A stretch of DNA of 32,000 bases, from NCBI GenBank assembly GCA_041659405.1, contig JBAZYK010000003.1:120001-152000 (forward strand). The letters run 5' to 3'. The DNA is from Candidatus Altimarinota bacterium. GTDB taxonomy: Bacteria; Patescibacteriota; Gracilibacteria; UBA1369. How positions within the stretch are numbered: position 1 is the stretch's first letter; every line of letters starts with the position of its first letter. The notes under the pieces were generated by a model. The model did no database searches. It was not told where the DNA came from and saw only the letters and a list, made by a program, of their open reading frames with translations. A program made the position numbers and the translations under genes. Below are positions 11,001 to 23,784 of this stretch, one piece after another.

Positions 11001-11567
11001 ATGTCTACAACCATTTGGATCATTTTAGGAATAGTTGTCCTAATAGTTATCTTTGCAATCGGCATCTACAACGGTCTTATTCAGCTTAAAAACAAGGTGG
11101 ACGAAGCCTGGGCTGACATCGAGACACAACTCAAACGTCGTTATGACCTTATCCCAAACATCGTAGAAACTGTCAAAGGTTATGCCACTCACGAAAAAGG
11201 CACTTTGGAAGAAGTGACCAAAGCCCGCTCGGCAGCCATGGGCGCAGGAACTATGGAAGATAAAGCTCAAGCGGAAAATATGCTTTCCGGAACCTTAAAA
11301 TCACTCTTTGCACTTTCCGAAAACTATCCACAATTACAGGCAAACCAGAACTTTTTGGATCTTCAACAAACTTTAAAACAAGTGGAAGAACAACTTCAAC
11401 TTTCACGCCGTTATTACAACGCTACAGTTCGTGATTTCAACGTTAAAATTGAAGTTTTCCCAAACAACGTTTTTGCCGGTATGTTCAACTTTACCAAACG
11501 TTCATTCTTTGAAGTTGGATCTGAAACTGAACGCGAAAACGTAAAAGTTTCTTTTGATGCCAAATAA
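11001..11567 (+). CDS. lemA: LemA family membrane protein
   Basis: The protein is 188 aa with an N-terminal TM helix. It carries the characteristic LemA sequence IYNGLIQLKNKVDEAWADIETQLKRRYDLIPNIVETVKGYATHEKGTLEEVTKARS ... YPQLQANQNF..LQ..L...E..L...RRYYNATVRDFN. Confidence 0.9.
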   Translation: MSTTIWIILGIVVLIVIFAIGIYNGLIQLKNKVDEAWADIETQLKRRYDLIPNIVETVKGYATHEKGTLEEVTKARSAAMGAGTMEDKAQAENMLSGTLKSLFALSENYPQLQANQNFLDLQQTLKQVEEQLQLSRRYYNATVRDFNVKIEVFPNNVFAGMFNFTKRSFFEVGSETERENVKVSFDAK

Positions 11568-13434
11568 GCCACTTTTGAACGAAGAACAAAAAGCGAAACT
11601 TACCAGGGCCGTCCGGGACGCCAAACAAAATACCTTCTTCAACGGAGGTATTATTGCTTTTTTCCTGATAATTTTTGCCATCGGCTTTGTTACATTTGGC
11701 TGGCTGATGTACATGCAATGGCAATCCTCCAATACATCTACACAAAATAACTGGAAAATCCCCGAATTCAAAGTAAACATGGATATTTACCAGGACGGCC
11801 GGACCTTTATTACCGAAAACATTCAAGCGGACTTCAGCCAAGAAAAGCATCACGGCATTTTCCGCTACATTCCTCTTTATTATAATGACGATCAAAACCA
11901 GAAAATGGATCTGGGAATATATCTTCAAACCATTAGGGATGAAATAGGCAAAATCTGGACATACGACCAAAGTTATCTTCAGGATTCGATCTACTTAAAA
12001 ATTGGCGATGCTAATGTTTATCTTAATTCGCTGGAAACTTATATTATAGATTATCAGGTCAATCACGCCATTCGTTACTATAAGGATCACGATGAAATTT
12101 ATTGGAACATCACCGGAAACGATTGGCCGGTAGCGATTGAACACACCGAAGCAAGCATTACCCTGCCAAAAGACCTGGCTGAAAAAGATTTAAAATTCAC
12201 CTGTTTTACGGGGATAACCGGATCAAAAGACCAAAATTGCACACACAGTATTGAAAAAGCCGAAGATGGCAGCCAAATTTTCACCTTTAAAGCTGATAAC
12301 CTGAAAACTTTGGAAGGTTTAACTGTGGCAGTTGGCTTTCCTAAAGGTGTTATAAACGAAATCGCACCGGTTCCTTACCAAAGTGATTCATATTACCAGG
12401 GCTCTTCAAACGGAGACAATACACCAAATTGGACCATGATCTTCCTGGAAATTTTTGTCCTGCCATTTTTGCTTTCCATTATTTACACAATTTTGTGGTT
12501 TAAAAATGGACGTGATCCCAAAGCAGATAAAACGGCCATCATGCCAATTTATACGCCTCCGGCGGATTTAACCCCGGCAGAAATTGGTGCTTTGGTTAAA
12601 GATTATGTTGAAGAAAAAGACCTTTCCGCCACCATTGTGGATTTATGCGTGCGAGGTTATATGAAAATAAAAGAACTGGCCAACCACGATTTCCAGTTTA
12701 TAAAATTAAAAGATTTTGCCAAAGATAATTCCTTGAAAGATTATGAAAGAGAGTTACTGCACAGCCTTTTTAAGGATTTCGATAAACGCAAGTTGAGCAG
12801 TTTAAAACAACATTTTTCTCAAAGTTTTGCGAAGATCAAAAAAATTATTTATGAAAATTTAATTAAAAAAGGATTTTATGATTCTTCACCAGAAAAAATC
12901 ATCGATAAATTCCAGGGATTGGGTATTGCCTTTATTTTCTTTGGAATATTTTTTATAGCTCCGGTCTCTTTGTGGATTAGCGGAAGCCTTATTTTGAGCG
13001 GAATTTTATCGGGCATTTTTGCTAAAATAATGCCACGCAAAACCAAAGCGGGAGTCAATATGCGTCAACAAATTTTGGGTCTGGAAGAATATATTAAAAC
13101 TGCCGAAACCGATCGAATCAAATTTCAGGAAAAGGAAAATCTGTTCGAGAAACTGCTGCCCTATGCCATGGTTTTGGGCTTAACCGACAAGTGGACCAAA
13201 GCTTTTGCCGGCATTACCACTACCCCACCGGAGTGGTACGAAACCACAAGCTCCAGATCGATGGTCTTTTCCACGGACGTCTTCCTTTCGAATCTAAATG
13301 TAATGAGCACCAGCATCAGTGCAACCTTTTCAGCTCCGGCACCTTCCCACGGCAGCGCCTTTGGAGGCGGTGGTGGCGGAGGCGGTGGATCTTCCGGCGG
13401 CGGAGGAGGCGGCGGTGGTGGTGGAGCGTGGTAA
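11557..13434 (+). CDS. DUF2207-family membrane protein, paralogue 1, with poly-Gly C-terminal tail ending GGAW
   Basis: The ATG at 11557 overlaps the end of lemA; the track's start is a TTG at 11554. The protein has an N-terminal signal-anchor helix and an extracytoplasmic domain (HHGIFRYIP, HDEIYWNITGNDW). It also has TM helices, the box TAETDRIKFQEKENLFEKLLPYAMVLG, and the tail GGGGGGGGSSGGGGGGGGGGAW. LemA followed by DUF2207 is a gene pairing I recall as common. Confidence 0.85.
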   Translation: MPNKPLLNEEQKAKLTRAVRDAKQNTFFNGGIIAFFLIIFAIGFVTFGWLMYMQWQSSNTSTQNNWKIPEFKVNMDIYQDGRTFITENIQADFSQEKHHGIFRYIPLYYNDDQNQKMDLGIYLQTIRDEIGKIWTYDQSYLQDSIYLKIGDANVYLNSLETYIIDYQVNHAIRYYKDHDEIYWNITGNDWPVAIEHTEASITLPKDLAEKDLKFTCFTGITGSKDQNCTHSIEKAEDGSQIFTFKADNLKTLEGLTVAVGFPKGVINEIAPVPYQSDSYYQGSSNGDNTPNWTMIFLEIFVLPFLLSIIYTILWFKNGRDPKADKTAIMPIYTPPADLTPAEIGALVKDYVEEKDLSATIVDLCVRGYMKIKELANHDFQFIKLKDFAKDNSLKDYERELLHSLFKDFDKRKLSSLKQHFSQSFAKIKKIIYENLIKKGFYDSSPEKIIDKFQGLGIAFIFFGIFFIAPVSLWISGSLILSGILSGIFAKIMPRKTKAGVNMRQQILGLEEYIKTAETDRIKFQEKENLFEKLLPYAMVLGLTDKWTKAFAGITTTPPEWYETTSSRSMVFSTDVFLSNLNVMSTSISATFSAPAPSHGSAFGGGGGGGGGSSGGGGGGGGGGAW

Positions 13435-13436
13435 CA

Positions 13437-13501
13437 GATCGCTGAAAGCGATCCGCGCCCGCCCTAAAGCGGGCATAGCAAATAACTATCGCGCAGCGAT
13501 A
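13437..13501 (+). other. Three consecutive short GC-rich stem-loops in the gap between the DUF2207 paralogues
   Basis: The stem-loops are gatcgct-gaa-agcgatc (13437-13453), gcccgc-cctaaa-gcgggc (13457-13474) and tatcgc-gca-gcgata (13487-13501). None is followed by a T-run. Confidence 0.4.
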
Positions 13502-13537
13502 CATTATCAAAAACGAAAATTCATTTAATACCCCCCC

Positions 13538-15361
13538 ATGAAACTCACAAAAAAAATTGCGGCAGGAATAATTCTGATACTTACAATAACCCTGATATCC
13601 GCATTACATATTGGAAGTACAAATATCACAAAAGCCCAAGATTCCACATCTTTTGATGATTTTTCTTCTGATGTTACCTCCCCGGATTCCACCAATGATT
13701 GGAGCATCACAAATTTTGATGCCGATATTCAGGTTCAAAAAGACGGCTCCGTGTTGGTCGATGAGACAATCACTACCGACTTTCCACCGGAAAGTGAACA
13801 CCATGGCATTTTCCGCTTTATACCAATTAATTATAAAGACGATTTTGGCAATAATGTCTCAATCAAGCTAAAAGTTTTAAGTATCCAAGATACCAAAGGC
13901 AACGAATGGCCTTATGAAACCTCTTATTCCGGACAAAATATTACGTTAAAAATCGGTGATCCGGACAAAATAATTCATGGACAAAATATTTACAAAATAA
14001 CTTATCAGGTTGATCGCGCACTTTTGTTTTTAAAAGATCACGATGAACTTTATTGGAACATCACCGGTGATCAATGGGAAACAGACATCCAAAAAGCCAG
14101 TGCCACCATTACCGTTCCTGCGGAAATTCAACAAAAAGATTTAAAAGCGGATTGTTATACCGGCGCTTACGGCTCAACCGACAAAAAATGCGACCTTAAA
14201 ATTCAAGATAATACCACAACGGTAACTTCAACTACCGACTTTAAATATGGTGAAGGCCTTACAGTGGCCGTTGCTTTCCCAAAAGGAATTATTAAAGAGC
14301 CAACCGCCCAGGAAAAAATTACGTGGTTTTTAGCAGACAACTGGGGGTATTTCTTGCCGGTAATTGCCTTTATCGCCCTCTTTTCCCTTTGGTTCACACG
14401 CGGTCGTGATCCTAAAGAAGGCGTAAAAACGACCATAATGCCTTATTATGAAGCTCCGGATAATTTAACCCCCAGTGAAATTGGAACCCTGGTCGATGAA
14501 AAAGCCGATATGCAAGATATTACCTCCACAATTATTGATATGGCCGTGCGGGGGTATCTTAAAATTATCGAAATCCAGGAGAAAAAAATAATTTTCAACA
14601 AAACCGATTACGAACTGGAATTACAACAAGAATTTGAAAACGACAACAAAGTCCAGGAGCACGAAAAAGCTGTTCTAAGAGCCATTTTTGATGCTTCAAA
14701 CAACTCAAAAGGAGCAAAAGTTAAACTCTCTACACTCGCCAATAAATTTTACATGTTTATCCCGGGTATCAAAAAAAATATTTATGAATTAACGGTATCT
14801 AAAGGTTATTTCCCGGTAAATCCGGACAACGTTCGCAAAATATATTTAGGTGTTGGTATCGGTTTAATTGTTTTGGGATTTTTCAGTTTTATGTATTTCT
14901 CGAATGGCGGTTCTGTTTCAGTCCCCATTGGACTTGTTTTAAGTGGGTTGATCATCATAATTTTTTCCAATTTCATGCCGATCAAAACCAAAAAAGGAGT
15001 TGAGATCTATTACAAAATAAAAGGCCTGAAAGAGTTCATCAATACTGCCGAAGCCGATCGCCTTAAATTCCAGGAAAAAGAAAATCTGTTCGAAAAACTG
15101 CTTCCTTATGCCATGGCCCTTGGAATTGCCGAAAAATGGTCCAAAGCTTTTGAAGGAATCTATAAAAATCCCCCAAGCTGGTATCAAAGCAGCAATCCAA
15201 ACTTCATGAACAATTTTTCCACTTATTATTTTGTTCATAGCCTGAATTCGTTTTCCAACACAATGCAACAAACCCTGGCCTCCACTCCAAAATCATCCGG
15301 CGGAATTGGCGGAGGCTTTTCCGGTGGCGGCTTTGGCGGCGGCGGCGGCGGCGCGTGGTAG
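13538..15361 (+). CDS. DUF2207-family membrane protein, paralogue 2, with poly-Gly C-terminal tail ending GGAW
   Basis: The protein is 607 aa with a signal peptide, MKLTKKIAAGIILILTITLISALHIG. It has the same conserved boxes as paralogue 1: HHGIFRFIP, HDELYWNITGDQW, WFTRGRDPK and TAEADRLKFQEKENLFEKLLPYAMALG. The tail is GGGFSGGGFGGGGGGAW. Confidence 0.85.
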   Translation: MKLTKKIAAGIILILTITLISALHIGSTNITKAQDSTSFDDFSSDVTSPDSTNDWSITNFDADIQVQKDGSVLVDETITTDFPPESEHHGIFRFIPINYKDDFGNNVSIKLKVLSIQDTKGNEWPYETSYSGQNITLKIGDPDKIIHGQNIYKITYQVDRALLFLKDHDELYWNITGDQWETDIQKASATITVPAEIQQKDLKADCYTGAYGSTDKKCDLKIQDNTTTVTSTTDFKYGEGLTVAVAFPKGIIKEPTAQEKITWFLADNWGYFLPVIAFIALFSLWFTRGRDPKEGVKTTIMPYYEAPDNLTPSEIGTLVDEKADMQDITSTIIDMAVRGYLKIIEIQEKKIIFNKTDYELELQQEFENDNKVQEHEKAVLRAIFDASNNSKGAKVKLSTLANKFYMFIPGIKKNIYELTVSKGYFPVNPDNVRKIYLGVGIGLIVLGFFSFMYFSNGGSVSVPIGLVLSGLIIIIFSNFMPIKTKKGVEIYYKIKGLKEFINTAEADRLKFQEKENLFEKLLPYAMALGIAEKWSKAFEGIYKNPPSWYQSSNPNFMNNFSTYYFVHSLNSFSNTMQQTLASTPKSSGGIGGGFSGGGFGGGGGGAW

Positions 15362-15365
15362 AGGC

Positions 15366-18300
15366 CTAAAACGCAAAGACCCTCACAATAATCTTGGCAG
15401 CTTCACCGCGGGTGAGGTTGTTGTTTGGCCCAAACAGGTTTAACGGGTTTCCCTGGCCGTCAACATATCCGGAGATAAAGCTGTGATCAACCGCAAACGA
15501 AATGTATCTATAATACCACGCTGTTGCAGAAACATCAGTAAAAGTTAGCGCGTTTCCATGAATTTCCTGATCGGCATAGATTGTTGCCAAGACGACTTTT
15601 AGGGCTTCTGCTCGAGTGATTTGGTTAAACGGCAGGAAGTAATTTTTGGAACCGACCACAACTCCCAATGATTTTGCTTTAGAAACGGCTGCACTAAACC
15701 AATCGGTTGTGTGTACATCAAAGAATGGATTTTCGGTGGCTGCCGGCAGTGTTGGGAACTGGCACTGCATCACAATTTTCACCAATTCCGCTCTGGAAAT
15801 TGTATCATTTGGTCGATATTCGTTAAGGAGATTCCCGTTTGCATCTTTATATCCTTGAACATCACATTTCTGCTGGAGTTTTTCGATATAGGTTTCAGCC
15901 CAATGGTTTTGGGTATCTGTGAAAAGTGCTTGCGCTACCGGTTGTGTTTGAGGTTGTTGCGCCGGTTGCGCTGGTTGATTATTCTGAGTTGGCTGAGTAT
16001 TAAAAATAACGCCACTGCCGCCGGTGGTAATCGTGAATGAATTAATTCCAAGTGCCGTACCGGCATTTCCGGTTGCATCGGTAACAAGAATAGTACAGCC
16101 GGAATGAGTTCCAAGACTCATTGATTGAAATGTAATAGTATTGTCACCGGAAATTGCGCTGGTGGTTAAGCTTAAACAACTTCCTGAATATGTGATTGTT
16201 CCAGCTTCATCAGAACTGAATGTATAATTAGGAGTTGAGTCGATGGTTGAACTTGGAACTGCGAGAACTTCGGCTAAAGTTGGGGCGGTATTATCGATTG
16301 TGAATGTGGATCCGCTTGTTGGAACGGCTGTGATAACATTTTCCGCGACATCGGTTCCAATCGACATTGAAACAGTTGCAGTTGCAATGTTTCCAGCCGG
16401 TACATCCAAATCATACGTATATTCCGTGGTACTAACTTTTGTCATGGCTGTTGCCGACAAAACCGCATTATCAACTGCAATTTTAACTACAGGTGAGTCT
16501 GCCATTGGTTCATTAAATGTTGCTTTGATTATTAATGTATTAGCGTTTCTAACTGATTCTGTTGAGGCGTATGTAACCCCGGCATCTTTTGAATATGTAA
16601 TCGCTGCGGTTGGCGCGGTTGTATCAAAAGTCACCGCTGTTCTGCTAACCGCTGTTGCGGCGTTTCCCGCGTCATCGGTTGCGTTGAATGCAAATGTATA
16701 GACGGCTCCGCTAACCAATCCGCTGGAATCACTCGTACATCCGTTTGTTGTATCCGAAAGATCCAAGTTCGCATGTGCTCCGGTATTTTTCGCTGTACCG
16801 ACTAACGTACAGGTATGCGGAGCGCTGCCATCTGCCGTTCCTGAAGTTTGTGAAATTAAAATTGTTCCACTCGCGACTGCTTCGCTCAATGTATAACTCA
16901 CATCGGATGAAGTGGTGACATTATTTATTGAAGTACTTGCGGTTGGGCTCACGCTGCTGAATACCGGGATAATTGTATCGATTGTGTAATCGCTTGTGTC
17001 GGTAACGGTTGTTTGGTTTCCTGCGTTGTCTGTAACGGTCACGGTCACATTGTTGGTTGCATCATCTTGGCTGTCCATGGCGCCGGATAGTGATGTTGTC
17101 CAAGTATCTGATGAATTACTTCCAACCAAAGCCGTATCGCCAGCTTTAAAGTTTGCCGCATTAAAACTCACGGAAGAAATCGTGTCCGTGTTATTGTCGC
17201 CGGTCGCAAGTGTATCGTCCCAGGTTGGCACTGCGGTATTTCCATTCTTAAACGCGCCGCCCGTTCCCGTTGCTCCCGTTACGGAAATATTTGCCGCGGT
17301 TAATGTGGGCGCGATATTATCAACCGTCGCATTGGTTGTATCCGCTGCCGTAGTTGCATTTCCCGCATCATCCGTCGCTGTCACGGAAACATTTCTGTTT
17401 GTAGTGTCGATTATGCCTGCAATAACAGGAAAAGTTGCCGTCCAGGTTCCACTTGAATTGGTTGCAGCGACTGCCGCTCCTCCTCCAAATTGGCTAAAAT
17501 CAACCGTAACGGTTGAAATTGTATCCGAGTTATTTTGTCCTCCAGCGGTATTATTCCAGGTTGCCGTTACAGTATCGTTAATCTTATACGCGCCGCCCGT
17601 TCCACTTCCTCCGGAAATTGAAATATATGCATCGGTCACAGTTGGCGGCAAAGTATCCACCGCAAAAGCTGAAGAATACATGGTTGTTCCGGTTGCTGTT
17701 CCGTTGTTTGGCGTGATCCGCAGCCAAACGGTTAAATCATTCGTGTTGGGAATATCCGTAGCCGCGTTCCAGGCAAATGTAAGGGCAACGGAGCCATCGT
17801 TATTTGTATCAATTCCGGAAATGGTATTGGTGGAAATAGTCACACCATTTCCCTCTCCATTTTCAGAAGCGGATGCAATTGTGGCGTTAACCCAGGTCAC
17901 ATTGTTTGTGGAATATTCTACAGAAACAGATGTTGTGCCCAAACCCGCATCAACAATTGTTGAAGTGGCGGTGACAAGAGACGCGGAAGTCTGCGAGGCA
18001 TTTGGTTTACTGGCGACCGGAGCGGTGGTGGCGGGAATGGTGGTGGTGTTGAGAATAACTTTCACATGGCCCACAGGGGAAGCTGAATCTGCTCCGGCAA
18101 TATCAGTTTTCCCATCTGCATTAAAATCACCTGTGACTAAAACCCAATTACCTCCTGTTGTATAGTCTGTCTTCGCACCAAAGGTTCCGTCTCCTACACC
18201 TAATAGGACTGAATCTTTGCTACCACTAATTCCTACAACAAGATCGGTTTCTCCATCTGCATTAAAGTCGCCTGTAGCTGTTCCAAATGTATGAGCCCCT

Positions 18301-19223
18301 ATAGCAGTATTTGCTGCCGCACCAAAAGTTCCATCTCCAGTGGGAGAACCTAAGAGAACTGAAATGTTATTATCAGCATAATTTGCCACAAAAAGATCGA
18401 GTATGCCATCTGCATTGAAGTAGCCTGCGGCCATAGAGATTGAATTACCTCCTGTAATGTAGTTTGCTGCCGCACCAAAAGTTCCAAGTCCCGTACCTAA
18501 TAAGACTGAGACGCCACCGGCAGTACCTTTTGCATCAGCCAGGTCAAGATTACCATCACCATTGAAGTCGCCCATAATCAAATATTGTGGACCAGTTCCC
18601 GCGGCATAGTTTGTTGCCGTACCAAAAGCTCCATTTCCATCACCTAATAAAACTGAAATGTTGTTCGTGCTAAAATTTACCACAGCTAAATCGAGCTTAC
18701 CATCACCATCAAAGTCGCCTGCAACAGCCACCATTGGAGCAGTCCCTACAGGGTAATTTACTGCTGTATTGAATGTCCCATCTCCTCTACCCAACAAAAT
18801 TGAGACATTGTTATCACTATAATTTGGCACAGCAAGATCAGTTTTGCCATCACCATTAAAGTCACCTGCAACTGATGAAATTGGATTTGCTCCTACAGCG
18901 TATGGCACCGCCGCACCAAAAGTCCCATTTCCAATGGAAGAACCCAACAGAACTGACACAGTGTTACCATAAACATCTGCTATAGAAAAATCAAAAATAC
19001 CATCTCCATTGAAATCACCTTTGGTTATTGAATACGAACCATCTCCTTCGTTATAACTCGCATCCGCAGCAAACGTCACCGCCGCATGCGCCGATTTTGT
19101 TGATAACCCTAAAAATCCTATCCCAATAAATAAAAAGGATAACGCAAAAATCCCTAACTTTTTTAAATTTGTTCCAAAGTTATAGACTGAATTATTTTCC
19201 ATTTGTTTTTTATTTTTTTGCAT
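15366..19223 (-). CDS. Large secreted cell-wall-anchored protein: signal peptide, seven FG-GAP/VCBS repeats, tandem Ig-like modules, Q/P linker, three C-terminal SLH domains
   Basis: The protein is 1285 aa with a signal peptide ending ...STKSAHA/AV. There are seven repeats of the GDFNGDGKTDLAV type. Repeated modules end in T(A/V)TD(D/N)AGN. The linker is QPAQPAQQPQTQP. The three SLH-like units are FTDTQNHWAETYIEKL..., FFDVHTTDWFSAAV...ITRAEALKVV, and FTDVSATAWYYRYI...LTRGEAAKIIVRV. Confidence 0.85.
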   Translation of the reverse strand: MQKNKKQMENNSVYNFGTNLKKLGIFALSFLFIGIGFLGLSTKSAHAAVTFAADASYNEGDGSYSITKGDFNGDGIFDFSIADVYGNTVSVLLGSSIGNGTFGAAVPYAVGANPISSVAGDFNGDGKTDLAVPNYSDNNVSILLGRGDGTFNTAVNYPVGTAPMVAVAGDFDGDGKLDLAVVNFSTNNISVLLGDGNGAFGTATNYAAGTGPQYLIMGDFNGDGNLDLADAKGTAGGVSVLLGTGLGTFGAAANYITGGNSISMAAGYFNADGILDLFVANYADNNISVLLGSPTGDGTFGAAANTAIGAHTFGTATGDFNADGETDLVVGISGSKDSVLLGVGDGTFGAKTDYTTGGNWVLVTGDFNADGKTDIAGADSASPVGHVKVILNTTTIPATTAPVASKPNASQTSASLVTATSTIVDAGLGTTSVSVEYSTNNVTWVNATIASASENGEGNGVTISTNTISGIDTNNDGSVALTFAWNAATDIPNTNDLTVWLRITPNNGTATGTTMYSSAFAVDTLPPTVTDAYISISGGSGTGGAYKINDTVTATWNNTAGGQNNSDTISTVTVDFSQFGGGAAVAATNSSGTWTATFPVIAGIIDTTNRNVSVTATDDAGNATTAADTTNATVDNIAPTLTAANISVTGATGTGGAFKNGNTAVPTWDDTLATGDNNTDTISSVSFNAANFKAGDTALVGSNSSDTWTTSLSGAMDSQDDATNNVTVTVTDNAGNQTTVTDTSDYTIDTIIPVFSSVSPTASTSINNVTTSSDVSYTLSEAVASGTILISQTSGTADGSAPHTCTLVGTAKNTGAHANLDLSDTTNGCTSDSSGLVSGAVYTFAFNATDDAGNAATAVSRTAVTFDTTAPTAAITYSKDAGVTYASTESVRNANTLIIKATFNEPMADSPVVKIAVDNAVLSATAMTKVSTTEYTYDLDVPAGNIATATVSMSIGTDVAENVITAVPTSGSTFTIDNTAPTLAEVLAVPSSTIDSTPNYTFSSDEAGTITYSGSCLSLTTSAISGDNTITFQSMSLGTHSGCTILVTDATGNAGTALGINSFTITTGGSGVIFNTQPTQNNQPAQPAQQPQTQPVAQALFTDTQNHWAETYIEKLQQKCDVQGYKDANGNLLNEYRPNDTISRAELVKIVMQCQFPTLPAATENPFFDVHTTDWFSAAVSKAKSLGVVVGSKNYFLPFNQITRAEALKVVLATIYADQEIHGNALTFTDVSATAWYYRYISFAVDHSFISGYVDGQGNPLNLFGPNNNLTRGEAAKIIVRVFAF
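16608..16940 (-). repeat. 333-bp tract identical base-for-base to 30104..30436 (direct orientation, offset 13496)
   Basis: I aligned the two gene sequences by eye. There is no mismatch between these coordinates. Mismatches occur immediately outside, at 16607/30103 and 16941/30437. Confidence 0.9.
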
Positions 19224-19285
19224 TGAAAAAACCTTACCTTTTATCTACTAAAAGACCAAAGAAAATATACACGAAAACGGCCCAC

Positions 19286-19311
19286 AAAAACAACCCAAAA
19301 AGGTTGTTTTT
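19286..19311 (-). terminator. Putative terminator hairpin at the uvrB 3' end
   Basis: A 10-bp stem, aaaaacaacc / ggttgttttt, with a 6-nt loop abuts and overlaps the uvrB stop codon. The stem is A/U-rich, so the call is of moderate strength. Confidence 0.4.
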
Positions 19312-21328
19312 ACAATTTAAACTCCTCCCTAATCTGCTCGATTTCATCACGAAGTTCTGCCGCTTTTTCGAATTCCATATTTTGTGAAGCCATGTCCATT
19401 TGCGCTCCCAGTTCCTCCAAAAAGCGTTTCATTTCTTCACGCGGGACTTTCTTTGGATCAATATGACGTTCACCTTTTGCCGCCCCTTTATTATGTTCCA
19501 TCGCAATATCCTTAATCGCCTTCACAATTGTTTGCGGAGTAATTCCATGTTTTTTATTGTAATCCGATTGAATTTTTCTACGACGATTTGTCTCATCCAT
19601 CGCCTTTTTCATGGCATCGGTTACATGGTGCGCATACATCACCACAAATCCGTTAATGTTACGGGCACAACGACCAATGGTTTGAATAAGTGCCGGCGCC
19701 GAGCGCAAAAAACCCTGTTTATCCGCATCCAAAATCGCAATAAAAGAAACTTCCGGCAAATCCAAACCTTCACGCAATAAGTTAATACCGACCAAAACAT
19801 CAAACTTCCCAAGACGTAAATCACGCAAAATTTCAATACGTTCCATGGTGTCGATATCCGAATGCAAATATTTCACTTTCACACCAACATCGGTCAAATA
19901 TTCGGTCAGATCTTCCGATGAACGTTTGGTTAAAGTTGTAATCAGCACACGCTCTTTTTTGGCGACGCGTTTTTGAATTTCATTGATCAAATCATCAATC
20001 TGATGTTCACTTGGACGAACCTCAACTTCCGGATCTATAAGCCCTGTTGGACGAATAATTTGCTCAACAACATTGCCCCCGACTTTTTCCGAACTCAAAC
20101 CAAAAACAAGCTCTTTTGCGCCCGCTTTTTTAAGTTCATATTGAGCCGGAGTCGCTGAAACATAAATCACCTGATTAATGGCCTCTTCAAATTCATCAAA
20201 CTTTAGCGGACGATTATCATGCGCGGAAGGAAGACGGAAACCATAATCAACCAAAGTCTGTTTGCGTGAATAATTTCCATTAAACATTCCCCCAACCTGC
20301 GGAATTGTCATGTGTGATTCATCAATAATCATCAAATAATCATCCGGAAAATAATCCAATAAAGTGGCTGTAGGAGCGCCCGGAGCCCGTTTGCTAAAAT
20401 AACGTGTATAGTTTTCAATTCCCGTTGTATAACCCGTTTCCAGCAAAATTTCCAAATCATATTCGGTGCGGGTTTTAATGCGTTCCGCTTCCAGCATTTT
20501 GCCCTGAGCCCTAAGCTCGTCATATCGAATCACCAAATCTTCACGAATTCGTGCAGCAGCAGCCTGAATTTTATCTTTACTGGTCACATCATGCTTGGCC
20601 GGAAATATTTTAACCGATTGCAGCTCCCGAATTTCTTCACCCGTAAACGAATCGGCCTCACTGATGCGCTCAATCTCATCTCCAAAAAACTCCAAACGGA
20701 AAATCGTATCACGATCCGGTGGAAAAATTTCCACAGTATCGCCCAAAACATGGAACATACCCTGTTTAAAATCCATCTGCGAACGGGAATATTGGATGTC
20801 ACTAAGCTGTCTTAAAAGTTTGTCACGCTTGCGCTCGTCCCCCACCTTAATTTCCATGGCGAATTTGGAGTAATCCTCAACATCACCCAAACCATAAATA
20901 CATGATACCGAAGCCACAATCAAGACATCACGGCGCGTTAATAAATTCACCGTAGCCGCATGACGAAATTTGTTAATTTCTTCATTGATGGACGCGTCTT
21001 TTTCAATATAAGTGTCCGTAGACGGCAAATACGCTTCCGGCTGATAATAATCGTAATAAGAAACAAAGTAGCTGACCGCGTTATTCGGGAAAAATTCCTT
21101 AAACTCCGCGCAAAGCTGAGCCGCCAAAGTTTTGTTATGAGCAAGCACCAAAGTTGGCCTCTGCACCTGCTGAACCACGTTTGCAATAGTGAAAGTTTTC
21201 CCGGACCCCGTCACCCCAAGCAAAACCTGCTGCTTCTCCCCTTTTTCCAGATTCTTGATCAAATAATCAATCGCTTGTGGCTGATCTCCGGTCGGCTTAA
21301 ACGGTGAGACTAACTCAAATTTACTCAT
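19310..21328 (-). CDS. uvrB: Excinuclease ABC subunit B
   Basis: The 672-aa protein matches UvrB over its full length. Features include the N-terminus [20 protein letters not shown], Walker [11 protein letters not shown], the box IIDESH, and the C-terminal UVR motif [11 protein letters not shown]. Confidence 0.97.
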
Positions 21329-21457: not shown

Positions 21458-22243
21458 TTATCCCACAGGTTTAAATGAATCCACCACATCCTGCATCACC
21501 CGATAAAGAAAATTATTTTTATACGGTTCAGAAACCATAATTTGCCCTGCCGATTTAAACATTGTCCCCAATCTAACCACCAGCCGCTCAGTAACTTCAA
21601 GCAACTGTTTATTATTCCAACCCCTTAATGCAATATTTGAAAAAAGAAAACGAAATATTTCATCAGAATAAGATTTCATTTGTTTGAACAAATGCGGATG
21701 ACGATATTCGGCAAGCTCAAGCGCTCCCTGCACCAAAGATTTTCGCGAAGATTGCTCCGCCGCAAAATCAGCCTCCCAATCTCCAAGCCTTCCCCTAACT
21801 TCTGTCTGCACTCTTTCAACCCGATATATTGCTTCCAGGCTCTTTTCCGGCTCCGATTTATCTTGCCCCCTCGGAAACAAAATAGCTTCAAATTTTGCCA
21901 TTACAGCATCTAAACGCGACCTCTTTCTTTGATGCTCTTCCTCAAAACCATCTCCGTTAAAAAAATCCTGTAAAGAGGGAATTTGGCAGCCGGAAGCTAT
22001 TTTTTGCAAAAAAGAAATCTCAAATTCTGCCAGCGGAGAGTCTGGATAATGTTGAAAGTGATGTCGAATACCTGCAAATAATCGCTCTTCAACAGAACTT
22101 CTACTTTCCCCGGAAAAATCAATCCAAATCCGCGTTAACTCTTTCCACTCCTCAGAAAACAAAATTTCCGACATTGGTGCCAACAACTCTTCCGGCACAG
22201 CTGAAGTCGCAATTGGAGCCGCGGGCGCACCACTCAAAGCCAT
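21458..22243 (-). CDS. Hypothetical protein (predicted all-alpha, no family recognised)
   Basis: The track ORF begins at a TTG at 22267. The first ATG is at 22243 (MALSGAPAAP...), which gives 261 aa. I recognise no motifs. Confidence 0.55.
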   Translation of the reverse strand: MALSGAPAAPIATSAVPEELLAPMSEILFSEEWKELTRIWIDFSGESRSSVEERLFAGIRHHFQHYPDSPLAEFEISFLQKIASGCQIPSLQDFFNGDGFEEEHQRKRSRLDAVMAKFEAILFPRGQDKSEPEKSLEAIYRVERVQTEVRGRLGDWEADFAAEQSSRKSLVQGALELAEYRHPHLFKQMKSYSDEIFRFLFSNIALRGWNNKQLLEVTERLVVRLGTMFKSAGQIMVSEPYKNNFLYRVMQDVVDSFKPVG

Positions 22244-22396
22244 AATCCAAAAAATACGTATAAACAAAACCGTGATACCACAATCAAAGTCCCGCAGACA
22301 ACCCTAAAACAAGATCTAAAGCCATAAACTTTCTATTTAAGTCCTTCTCGTATATACTGCATACGGTTTTCTTTATTATTTTACCTCACTACACCT

Positions 22397-22639
22397 ATGG
22401 TAAAACACAAACCAATGTGCTGGGTTGTCAGCCTTTTAGTTGTTGTCGGTGGTCTTAACTGGGGTCTTGTAGGCCTTGGCAGTCTAATGGGATCAGGAAC
22501 AAACCTAAACGTTGTTAACCTTCTTTTGGGAAGTGTCCCAATGGTAGAATCAATCGTTTACCTTCTAGTAGGTGTTGCAGCTCTATTAATGGGCTACATG
22601 TTCTTCACAGAAAAAACCTGCGCCTGCGAAAAAATGTAA
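22397..22639 (+). CDS. DUF378-family small membrane protein
   Basis: The protein is 80 aa with two TM helices. It has the signature VVGGLNWGLVGLG...NLVNLLLG...IVYLLVGVAAL that I associate with DUF378. Confidence 0.75.
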   Translation: MVKHKPMCWVVSLLVVVGGLNWGLVGLGSLMGSGTNLNVVNLLLGSVPMVESIVYLLVGVAALLMGYMFFTEKTCACEKM

Positions 22640-22661
22640 TTTTAAAAATTGAAATCAAAAA

Positions 22662-22691
22662 GGGCTTCGCTACAAGCGGAGCTCTTTTTTT
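22662..22691. terminator. Bidirectional intrinsic terminator between convergent genes
   Basis: The stem gggcttcgc / gcggagctc is 9 bp including two G-U pairs, with loop tacaa. It is followed by T7 on the + strand and preceded by A5, which reads as a T-run on the - strand. Confidence 0.65.
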
Positions 22692-22854
22692 ATGAAGATT
22701 TCAAACTATCCAAATAAGATTTCATTTCTGCCAAATTCTTAGTTTCTTTAACCTTACGCCCTTTCTTTGCATCTTCGGAAGCCACCAAAACCGCATCCTC
22801 CTGTGCGAGAGTTAAGCCATTCGCAGTCAAAAGTTTAAGATGAATAGTAGCCAT
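22690..22854 (-). CDS. Small 54-aa ORF coupled to the 308-aa orphan gene (below the ORF-track cutoff)
   Basis: I translated it manually as MATIHLKLLTANGLTLAQEDAVLVASEDAKKGRKVKETKNLAEMKSYLDSLKSS. Its ATG at 22854 lies 3 nt after the upstream gene's stop (TAA-TCT-ATG). Its own stop abuts the bidirectional terminator. Confidence 0.35.
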   Translation of the reverse strand: MATIHLKLLTANGLTLAQEDAVLVASEDAKKGRKVKETKNLAEMKSYLDSLKSS

Positions 22855-22857
22855 AGA

Positions 22858-23784
22858 TTATGCATTTAAACAGGCAATCAAACAACCTCTAAGGTCTGCG
22901 TCCCGATTACTCATTTCTTCTGGAATTTCAAGCCCTTCTTCGCGCATTGCCCTAATGGGTTTTATCCATGCAAACACTGGAATACGATCATCACCACCCC
23001 TGGAAAGATAATCTCGAATTAGCGGAAATGCAGCAGCTCGGCCTAATGCAACAATATCAGCTATAGCATCAGGATCCTCAGAGGCAAAGTAATTAGAGTT
23101 TGATTCCACAGCATCACAATGCTTTTCCCAACGCGTCACCGCGTCAGTGAATTTAGTTTCAAGAGGTGTCATTTCAGCTAATTGCGCTGGATTTTGCCTA
23201 GCTAATTCCGCCAATATTTCATCTAATTCATTCGGGATTAATGAAGTTCTTCTAGGATCTAAAGGTTCGTAATGATCATCATTTTTATCAACCATCCAAT
23301 TACGATAAGGATGATCCCACTGACAAGCTTCAGCAGTATTCCCCTGAGCATCAAGCGTAAAGATTCTACATTGACCAAGCCCTTCCTCGGAAATATTTTG
23401 GACAATTCTATACCCTTCCACATCTGACACGCGACGAGCCATTTCAATATCTTTAGGCAAATCGACAGTATCTCCCAACTCAGCAAAAAATTTTCCATCA
23501 TTTCCCATACCTAAAGCTCTCACTTTTGCCCTAGTCCAATTTCGCATTTCAAATTCCAAAAAATTTGCCGGCACAGCATATAAACGTGGATGAAAAGCCT
23601 CAGAAGTTTTTGGAATAAGTCGCTCCAAATATACATCATGTGCTCCACCAAAAAACTTTAAATCCACTGTTTCATGAACATTATCACCCAAAAGACGTTC
23701 TAAAATTTCCTTTCGCTTGGCAGCAATTTTAGGATCAGCTTCAATTGAACTTTCTTGATGATCTCCCGTCTGAGCTTCCGTCAT
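22858..23784 (-). CDS. Hypothetical acidic 308-aa protein (possible HEAT-like C-terminal segment), no family recognised
   Basis: The ORF is clean and starts at an ATG. The C-terminal segment DPDAIADIVALGRAAAFPLIRDYLSRGGDDRIPVFAWIKPIRAM weakly resembles HEAT/PBS-lyase repeats. Confidence 0.6.
   Translation of the reverse strand: MTEAQTGDHQESSIEADPKIAAKRKEILERLLGDNVHETVDLKFFGGAHDVYLERLIPKTSEAFHPRLYAVPANFLEFEMRNWTRAKVRALGMGNDGKFFAELGDTVDLPKDIEMARRVSDVEGYRIVQNISEEGLGQCRIFTLDAQGNTAEACQWDHPYRNWMVDKNDDHYEPLDPRRTSLIPNELDEILAELARQNPAQLAEMTPLETKFTDAVTRWEKHCDAVESNSNYFASEDPDAIADIVALGRAAAFPLIRDYLSRGGDDRIPVFAWIKPIRAMREEGLEIPEEMSNRDADLRGCLIACLNA

Follow-up and report, generated by a model that had tools for sequence, protein, structure and literature searches.

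How two surface-protein genes that have otherwise diverged came to share 333 nucleotides (nt) without a single difference is the question raised by a 32,000-nt stretch of DNA from Candidatus Altimarinota bacterium (assembly GCA_041659405.1, contig JBAZYK010000003.1, positions 120,001 to 152,000), the whole of which is called the window in what follows. The two genes, named p1 and p2, are predicted from the C-terminal triple SLH domain in each to be paralogues encoding SLH-anchored cell-surface proteins, and the identical tract is a module of both, named R. Judged from the distribution of differences between the two genes, the tract is very probably the result of a very recent non-reciprocal transfer of R between p1 and p2, and the latest of several such events.

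Between head and anchor, p1 and p2 carried tandem modules of approximately 110 amino acids (aa), each closed by the linker D-x-x-A-P-T (Table 1). The block common to both genes consisted of modules X, A, B and R, with A' additional in p2 between A and B; past R, p1 and p2 were unrelated up to a Q/P-rich linker and the SLH triad. Positions 16608-16940 and 30104-30436 were identical over 333 nt (0 mismatches), and the match was not extendable by 1 base on either side. The tract comprised 111 codons in frame with both genes, started about 10 residues past the linker closing module B, and ended at the last codon of the linker of R itself. Genome-wide (1,509,804 bases in 21 contigs; 98.5% complete), the tract was found in just these two copies, and no exact repeat was longer; the runner-up (289 nt) was on a different contig.

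On the high-coordinate side, the next 392 nt contained 52 mismatches and one 3-nt indel (approximately 13%). The alignment offset then shifted from 13496 to 13817, which corresponded to an extra module of 321 nt (107 codons) in p2, and homology picked up again at 79% identity (17318-17667 vs. 31135-31484). On the low-coordinate side, p1 and p2 were unalignable immediately past the linker codons for ...DTTAPT. Identity reappeared in a patch of 89% (15808-15968 vs. 28743-28903), and at the 3' ends (15366-15473 vs. 28295-28402; 108 nt), which were 93.5% identical, with all differences silent (7/7). A preliminary description of the window, made by eye, had reported the same perfect tract with the same limits and the abrupt stop of homology at a module boundary on the low-coordinate side, and both were reproduced by the computed alignment. 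Its account of the flanks was right in outline and needed other figures: approximately 10% differences over some 370 bp became 13% over 392 nt, the extra Ig-like module of paralogue 2 was present with a size of 321 nt (about 30800-31117) instead of about 300 bp, and the resumption of homology at lower identity had been placed at 17305-17660 and 31120-31475. Little divergence of the 3' ends and much more in the SLH region between was also found, with the 89% patch at 15808-15968 to be added to that picture. The length of p2 was corrected, as the gene extends beyond the window (28295-34105; full length 1936 aa).

The alignment of R, B and A had 1060 sites with 124 differences, and a longest identical run of 333 nt. 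None of 200,000 permutations of the positions of the differences reached 333 nt (largest run 124 nt), and the identity of the tract was significantly above that of the rest of the paralogue alignment, as in a GENECONV-type test. Third codon positions differed at 0/111 in R and at 39/128 in the adjacent module B (P about 3e-18). Synonymous (dS) and nonsynonymous (dN) divergence between p1 and p2 was estimated per module by the Nei-Gojobori method. Values of dS were 2.7 in X (saturated), 1.10 in A, 0.51 in B (dN 0.05) and 0 in R (84 synonymous sites), stepping down along the cassette from X through A and B to R. The SLH end was patchy as well, with dS of 0.95 in the linker plus the first SLH domain, saturation in the second and third SLH domains, and 0.34 in the last 35 codons (dN 0). 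Because selection at the protein level cannot homogenise silent sites, the silent identity of R requires recent copying. Differences in B were mostly silent and included long silent-only stretches; strong selection at the protein level in B has thus not prevented silent divergence, so the identity of R is not explained by protein constraint. Both the permutation and the dS tests agreed with a sharply bounded perfect tract in diverged flanks, as first described, and divergence was not uniform across the genes.

A sister species (G001) was the sole congener compared; its assembly is 95% complete, and both relevant contigs end inside the cassette. One contig contained nrdJ, uvrB and then the gene in the position of p1, and the other contained a p2-like gene (head 60% aa identity), ending after a 55-nt exact run within the cassette. 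The A modules of the two G001 genes were 94% identical to each other in nt and 100% in aa over 56 codons (95-97% aa over wider stretches). Identity of A modules between the two genomes was 60-64% in nt and 55-59% in aa, and the two A modules of the present genome were 83% identical in nt over the same 168 nt. In a maximum-likelihood tree of A modules the G001 pair was joined with a support of 99/100, with grouping by genome and not by locus; a comparison with related genomes had been proposed as a check. The dS of uvrB between the two genomes was 1.26; B (0.51) and R (0) were below this value, so their homogenisation postdates the separation of the two species. On these alignments the paralogue pair is read as showing mosaic concerted evolution, and the clustering by genome as the classic signature of repeated gene conversion. 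Independent duplication of the cassette in each lineage could also group modules by genome, and is less economical given the mosaic of ages.

The mechanism was probably RecA-dependent ectopic gene conversion. Both recA (463.7 bits, over the cut-off) and mutS were present in the genome, and Peribacteria genomes have been reported to contain recA and the Ruv pathway (PMC4736985). RecA would have promoted strand invasion within the already similar B/R region, after which the donor would have been copied and the event resolved where the shared cassette ends or slightly ahead of that point. Earlier events of differing age would have homogenised modules B and A, the linker plus the first SLH domain, and the 3' end, with purifying selection holding the aa sequence in between, and the outcome would be the mosaic of silent-site divergence. 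The recent non-reciprocal recombination proposed in the preliminary description is upheld by a tract that was sharply bounded and statistically extreme, with silent sites homogenised between flanks with dS of 0.5-1.1.

The order of the genes restricts the outcomes of such recombination. The two 333-nt repeats were in direct orientation and bracketed uvrB and nrdJ, as had been pointed out before, and the latter was the sole full-length ribonucleotide reductase (RNR) large subunit of the genome. A crossover between the repeats would excise a 13.5-kb circle, and therefore only non-crossover outcomes should persist, in agreement with the earlier argument that only conversion would. Crossover products would lose both uvrB and the sole nrdJ, and conversion-type outcomes would survive. 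Conversion would be a by-product of paralogue similarity, with no dedicated system.

The support for the tract in the assemblies was as follows. Contig ends overlapped by exactly 127 nt, which indicates a de Bruijn assembly with k = 127; R (333 nt) is longer than k, and the path through the graph would pass twice over a single R edge. In both copies of R, the terminal 127 nt on either side were linked by k-mers to the unique flank of that copy. A MEGAHIT contig from ENA (ERZ27249449; 50.7 kb) differed from the window at 1 of 23,858 bases, and contained p1 whole with R unchanged. The other end of the same contig carried the p2 downstream flank plus 121 nt of R (30104-30224) with 0 mismatches. 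In another NCBI assembly, a 454-aa fragment corresponded to p1 residues 832-1285, and its 138-kb contig stopped approximately 123-125 nt into the R of p1; a break is to be expected at the start of a repeat that exceeds k. A Logan contig from SRR6484324 was 100% identical to the upstream part of p2 and, exactly as predicted for k = 31, ended after the first 30 nt of a 50-nt run common to p1 and p2. There was 1 base difference in about 45 kb compared among three assemblies. Other assemblies supported the copy of p1 and the downstream junction of each copy; three of the four R junctions, or parts of them, were present in other assemblies, and the upstream junction of p2 in this assembly only. A second ENA contig (100% identical to the genome) stopped at 30557, so that positions 30225-30556 of p2 (332 nt) were on neither ENA contig. 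This gap could result from low depth or pruning, or from a heterogeneous p2 (a second allele) in that sample. A deletion allele was considered as its cause and rejected, since the break points had no homology or microhomology and 332 nt would be out of frame.

Several observations weigh against a recent transfer by gene conversion. No other assembly was found to contain the junction of R with its upstream flank in p2 (30436/30437): an exact 57-nt pattern across it had no match in JGI metagenome contigs, exact-product look-ups returned no record for the R unitig, for guessed bridging fragments or for full p2, and a homology search with the 204-aa bridging piece returned no near-identical fragment. 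The central 79 nt, approximately (about 16735-16813), could hide a few differences merged on the shared k = 127 edge. The ENA MEGAHIT contig crosses the R of p1 unbroken, yet at k = 141 the graph would be expected to branch at each copy of an exact two-copy repeat. The tract reaches the last codon of shared sequence, and classical two-ended conversion needs homology on both sides. Module R was not found in the G001 assembly (95% complete, with both genes cut by contig ends), so that perhaps only one of the two genes held an older R copy. Lastly, donor and recipient were indistinguishable.

Those points that concern the assembly would be accounted for by an artefact, in which the R copies would not be truly identical or the R of p2 would be chimeric, through a merged edge or joined strain variants. 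This was very unlikely. The artefact would draw on a k = 127 short-read assembly in which R exceeds k and one edge is used twice, on the central 79 nt being unphased to either flank, and on the unexplained ENA gap and the p2 upstream junction without independent support. Yet a contig path can be built only from k+1-mers that are present in the reads, which implies that at least 254 of the 333 nt are truly shared, and direct repeats with four distinct flanks allow one linear path that uses all edges. Independent assemblies confirmed p1 whole, the p2 downstream junction plus 121 nt, and the break inside the R of p1; with 1 base in about 45 kb differing among assemblies, strain mixing was slight. 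Even a few hidden differences would leave the tract far less diverged than its flanks. Since there is no homology beyond the end of the tract, a one-sided event is a live alternative, possible though on balance unlikely. Pairing in B would have anchored it, R would have been copied, and the copy would have been joined illegitimately or by microhomology at linker codons, so that one gene gained a new module. Such homology-facilitated illegitimate recombination or template switching would still be a non-reciprocal copy between loci. The linker codons GCG CCA AC. (A-P-T) closed almost every module and bounded the A' indel, and identity extended up to the last linker codon with unalignable sequence beyond it, both as a one-sided join would leave them. 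The G001 gene adjacent to uvrB passed from B directly to an M5-like module, which together with the missing R would fit a recent gain, and identity peaked at the edge of the shared block, where random two-ended tracts would favour the middle. On the other side, the dS staircase along X, A and B indicates that ordinary homogenisation was also acting on the cassette, R may have been missed in G001, where the assembly is 95% complete and contig ends cut both genes, and the microhomology was just 8-11 nt. A conversion tract ending in the last 10-20 nt of the conserved linker would also look alike. A further extension, rather improbable, would be that the linker codons (D-x-x-A-P-T; GCG CCA AC.) serve as recombination joints for pasting, deleting and exchanging stalk modules, with R newly inserted one-sidedly and the ENA gap in p2 reflecting a still-polymorphic population. 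If true, it would be module-level domain shuffling caught in progress in a candidate-phyla-radiation bacterium.

Programmed cassette exchange by a dedicated surface-variation system, like pilE/pilS, vlsE or Campylobacter fetus sap, could be suspected from the large exposed proteins, the 71 or so SLH-domain matches in the genome, the linker motif repeated at module boundaries, and the heads that differ between species at the same locus, and was highly improbable. A tblastn search of every module against the genome placed A, B and R only in two complete genes with their own starts, with no silent or partial cassettes. The interval between p1 and p2 had no recombinase gene, and there were no homopolymer switch tracts upstream of p1 or p2. 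Assemblies of different samples were identical here wherever they overlapped, with 30225-30556 missing from the ENA contigs, and the outcome was homogenisation and not diversification. With only two copies of the modules and both genes complete, nothing indicates programmed cassette switching. The suggestion in the preliminary description that surface-exposed modules are being shuffled was not sustained: the effect was homogenisation of stalk modules, with no silent cassettes and no variation between assemblies. Selection at the nucleotide level, for an RNA or DNA element inside the coding tract, was hardly conceivable, the identity itself being the only observation in its favour. There was no Rfam match in the window, the RNA fold z-score was unremarkable (-1.18), and the tract looked like any other in-frame module from a repeat family of wide distribution. 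The preferred explanation is a very recent non-reciprocal transfer, probably by gene conversion.

Table 1. Coordinates of the two surface-protein genes, their modules and the genes between them (positions in the window; partner positions refer to p2).
Feature	Position	Strand	Description
p1	15366..19223	-	Open reading frame (ORF) of 1285 aa; FG-GAP repeat head, X, A, B, R, M4, M5, Q/P linker, three SLH
p1 3' end	15366..15473	-	Partner 28295-28402; last 35 aa identical; 7 silent differences; dS 0.34
Q/P linker and first SLH domain	15808..15968	-	Partner 28743-28903; 89%; within much more diverged SLH sequence
Module R in p1, copy 1	16608..16940	-	aa 762-872; ends at linker ...FDTTAPT; exact match to 30104-30436
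Module B of p1	16941..17303	-	Partner 30437-30799; 87% nt, 90% aa; dS 0.51, dN 0.05; patchy, sliding identity 73-97%
Module A of p1	17304..17663	-	Partner 31118-31468; 78% nt, 85% aa; dS 1.10
uvrB	19310..21328	-	Between repeats; ORF and Pfam; 89% aa to G001 gene in same position
nrdJ-type ribonucleotide reductase	24223..28044	-	Between repeats; sole full-length RNR large subunit in genome
p2	28295..34105, past window edge at 32000	-	1936 aa; full ORF from genome contig
p2 layout			DUF2341-containing head, X, A, A', B, R, unrelated modules, G/T and Q/P linkers, three SLH
Module R in p2, copy 2	30104..30436	-	aa 1224-1334; exact match to 16608-16940
Module A', p2 only	30800..31117	-	One-module indel, 321 nt; bounded by V-D-x-x-A-P linker motifs

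Pfam matches in p1 were FG-GAP_3 (E 9e-42; six N-terminal matches) and SLH (E 2e-26; three C-terminal domains), and in p2 SLH (E 4e-27; three C-terminal stretches) and DUF2341 (E 6e-27). The modules of both proteins are likely Ig-like (immunoglobulin-like), as judged from their similarities. Scores of R and A' against Pfam Big_13 were 14.8 and 25.7 bits, both under the cut-off of 27, and homologues frequently had a Big_13 or Big_12 annotation. A sequence search of R against the PDB returned no match, and the AlphaFold model of R, built from an alignment of 8 module rows, was all-beta and of low confidence (mean predicted local distance difference test score, pLDDT, 56). Modules of the R type were widespread, with 717 representative proteins at E <= 0.001, some of them with dozens of copies. 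The best matches of p1 in named genomes were in Peregrinibacteria and other candidate-phyla-radiation metagenome-assembled genomes, consistent with the small genome. In protein-guided searches, relatives were all <=64% identical in aa among GTDB genomes and all <=59% identical in JGI metagenomes, and a large homology search returned distant multi-Ig proteins only.

In module B, a long run of codons (17037-17288) differed between p1 and p2 at silent sites only, and adjoined a short patch (16957-17040) with 26% nt differences and many aa differences; the pattern is read as purifying selection beside a variable loop. Third-position G+C was higher in the shared cassette (X, A, B and R; 0.36-0.50) and the SLH ends (0.36-0.41) than in the unique heads and modules M4 and M5 of p1 (0.27-0.29) or the unique p2 modules past R (0.35), with an overall G+C of 0.40 in the genome. 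This distribution would be compatible with GC-biased conversion or with a separate origin of the cassette. Directly after uvrB there was a terminator-like hairpin with a T run, and an A/T-rich stretch ahead of the start of p1 (19224-19309), because of which p1 is probably its own transcription unit.

The G001 gene downstream of uvrB (L047:6835-10017) was without an FG-GAP head. Its first 350 aa or so resembled the N-terminus of the other paralogue (L048:11752-15117; 54% aa), including a 299-nt stretch with 82% identity. Modules M4 of p1 and those past R in p2 were sought in G001, with SLH domains as the sole matches. Heads thus differed between species at the same locus, and the stalk cassette was retained. 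Between uvrB and nrdJ of the present genome, two ORFs at 21458-23784 (269 and 308 aa) had no Pfam match; the spacing of the two genes in G001 was only about 630 nt, and the two-ORF island was specific to this genome.

In the wider genome (1.5 Mb) there were 71 SLH-domain matches in some thirty proteins. Several other paralogue pairs had segments with 85-95% identity (e.g., C1:166763-167591 vs. C4:58903-59731, 95%), and patchy exchange among surface-protein genes may be general in this genome. On contig C11 (58698-63583; L055:2199-7084), a non-coding repeat of about 300 nt was present in four direct copies with spacings of 3087, 688 and 811 nt. Aligned without gaps to the reference copy, they were 70-99% identical to it, and the three best copies shared exact runs of 281-289 nt. 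They adjoined a tyrosine recombinase gene (Phage_integrase, E 5.5e-41), and two unannotated ORFs lay between the first two copies. The layout, at a contig end, is integron-like or that of a cassette array. An ORF of 372 aa with no Pfam match (C3:157164-158282; L050:3165-4283) had family copies on C1 and C4 with 76-95% nt identity. Within the window, positions 11001-15361 contained lemA followed by two tandem DUF2207 paralogues sharing patches with 73-80% identity (13015-13214 vs. 14960-15159; 11848-11892 vs. 13799-13843).

Ectopic conversion between dispersed paralogues is RecA-dependent in the bab and hop genes of Helicobacter pylori and in tufA and tufB, and makes paralogues more alike within than between genomes. 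Pride and Blaser reportedly described in 2002 the concerted evolution of H. pylori outer-membrane protein paralogues (babA/babB and related), and a 2005 review by Santoyo and Romero is said to treat concerted evolution by ectopic gene conversion, tufA/tufB included. As in the H. pylori paralogues, segments of p1 and p2 were homogenised and variable parts kept distinct; the H. pylori genes encode different proteins in a different phylum, and their exchange demonstrably alters adhesin expression, whereas p1 and p2 are known from sequence alone. Neisseria pilE/pilS, Borrelia vlsE and Campylobacter fetus sap generate diversity at high frequency from silent donor cassettes or by an invertible promoter. 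They resemble p1 and p2 in that non-reciprocal recombination acts on surface or S-layer genes through shared conserved segments, and differ in that p1 and p2 are two complete genes with no silent copies and with identity as the result.

The nearest described case was that of ligA and ligB of Leptospira, which encode surface proteins with Ig-like domains and are almost identical over a stretch that stops inside one domain, with unique domains beyond it; the stretch has been ascribed to recombination among the lig genes together with partial duplication (PMC7821625). What the lig genes have in common is their 5' end with the promoter, about 2.1 kb in length, whereas p1 and p2 share one module in the gene interior, accompanied by progressively older tracts and by a 3' anchor that was homogenised on its own. 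Unlike Lig, p1 and p2 have domains other than Big_2, and their anchor is SLH instead of a lipobox. In full-text literature searches, no gene conversion was found reported for surface proteins of Patescibacteria. The locus adds a clear new case to a process that is well known, and reveals no new mechanism.

The p1 and p2 pair documents active homologous recombination and repeated homogenisation of paralogues in the reduced genome of an uncultured Peregrinibacteria-like bacterium. Tracts of this kind break or mislead short-read assemblies of these genes, and the orthology of modules is not inferable from similarity. Large surface proteins of such bacteria are thought to mediate attachment (PMC4736985). 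In at least two species of this genus, two surface proteins with different heads show concerted evolution of stalk and anchor.

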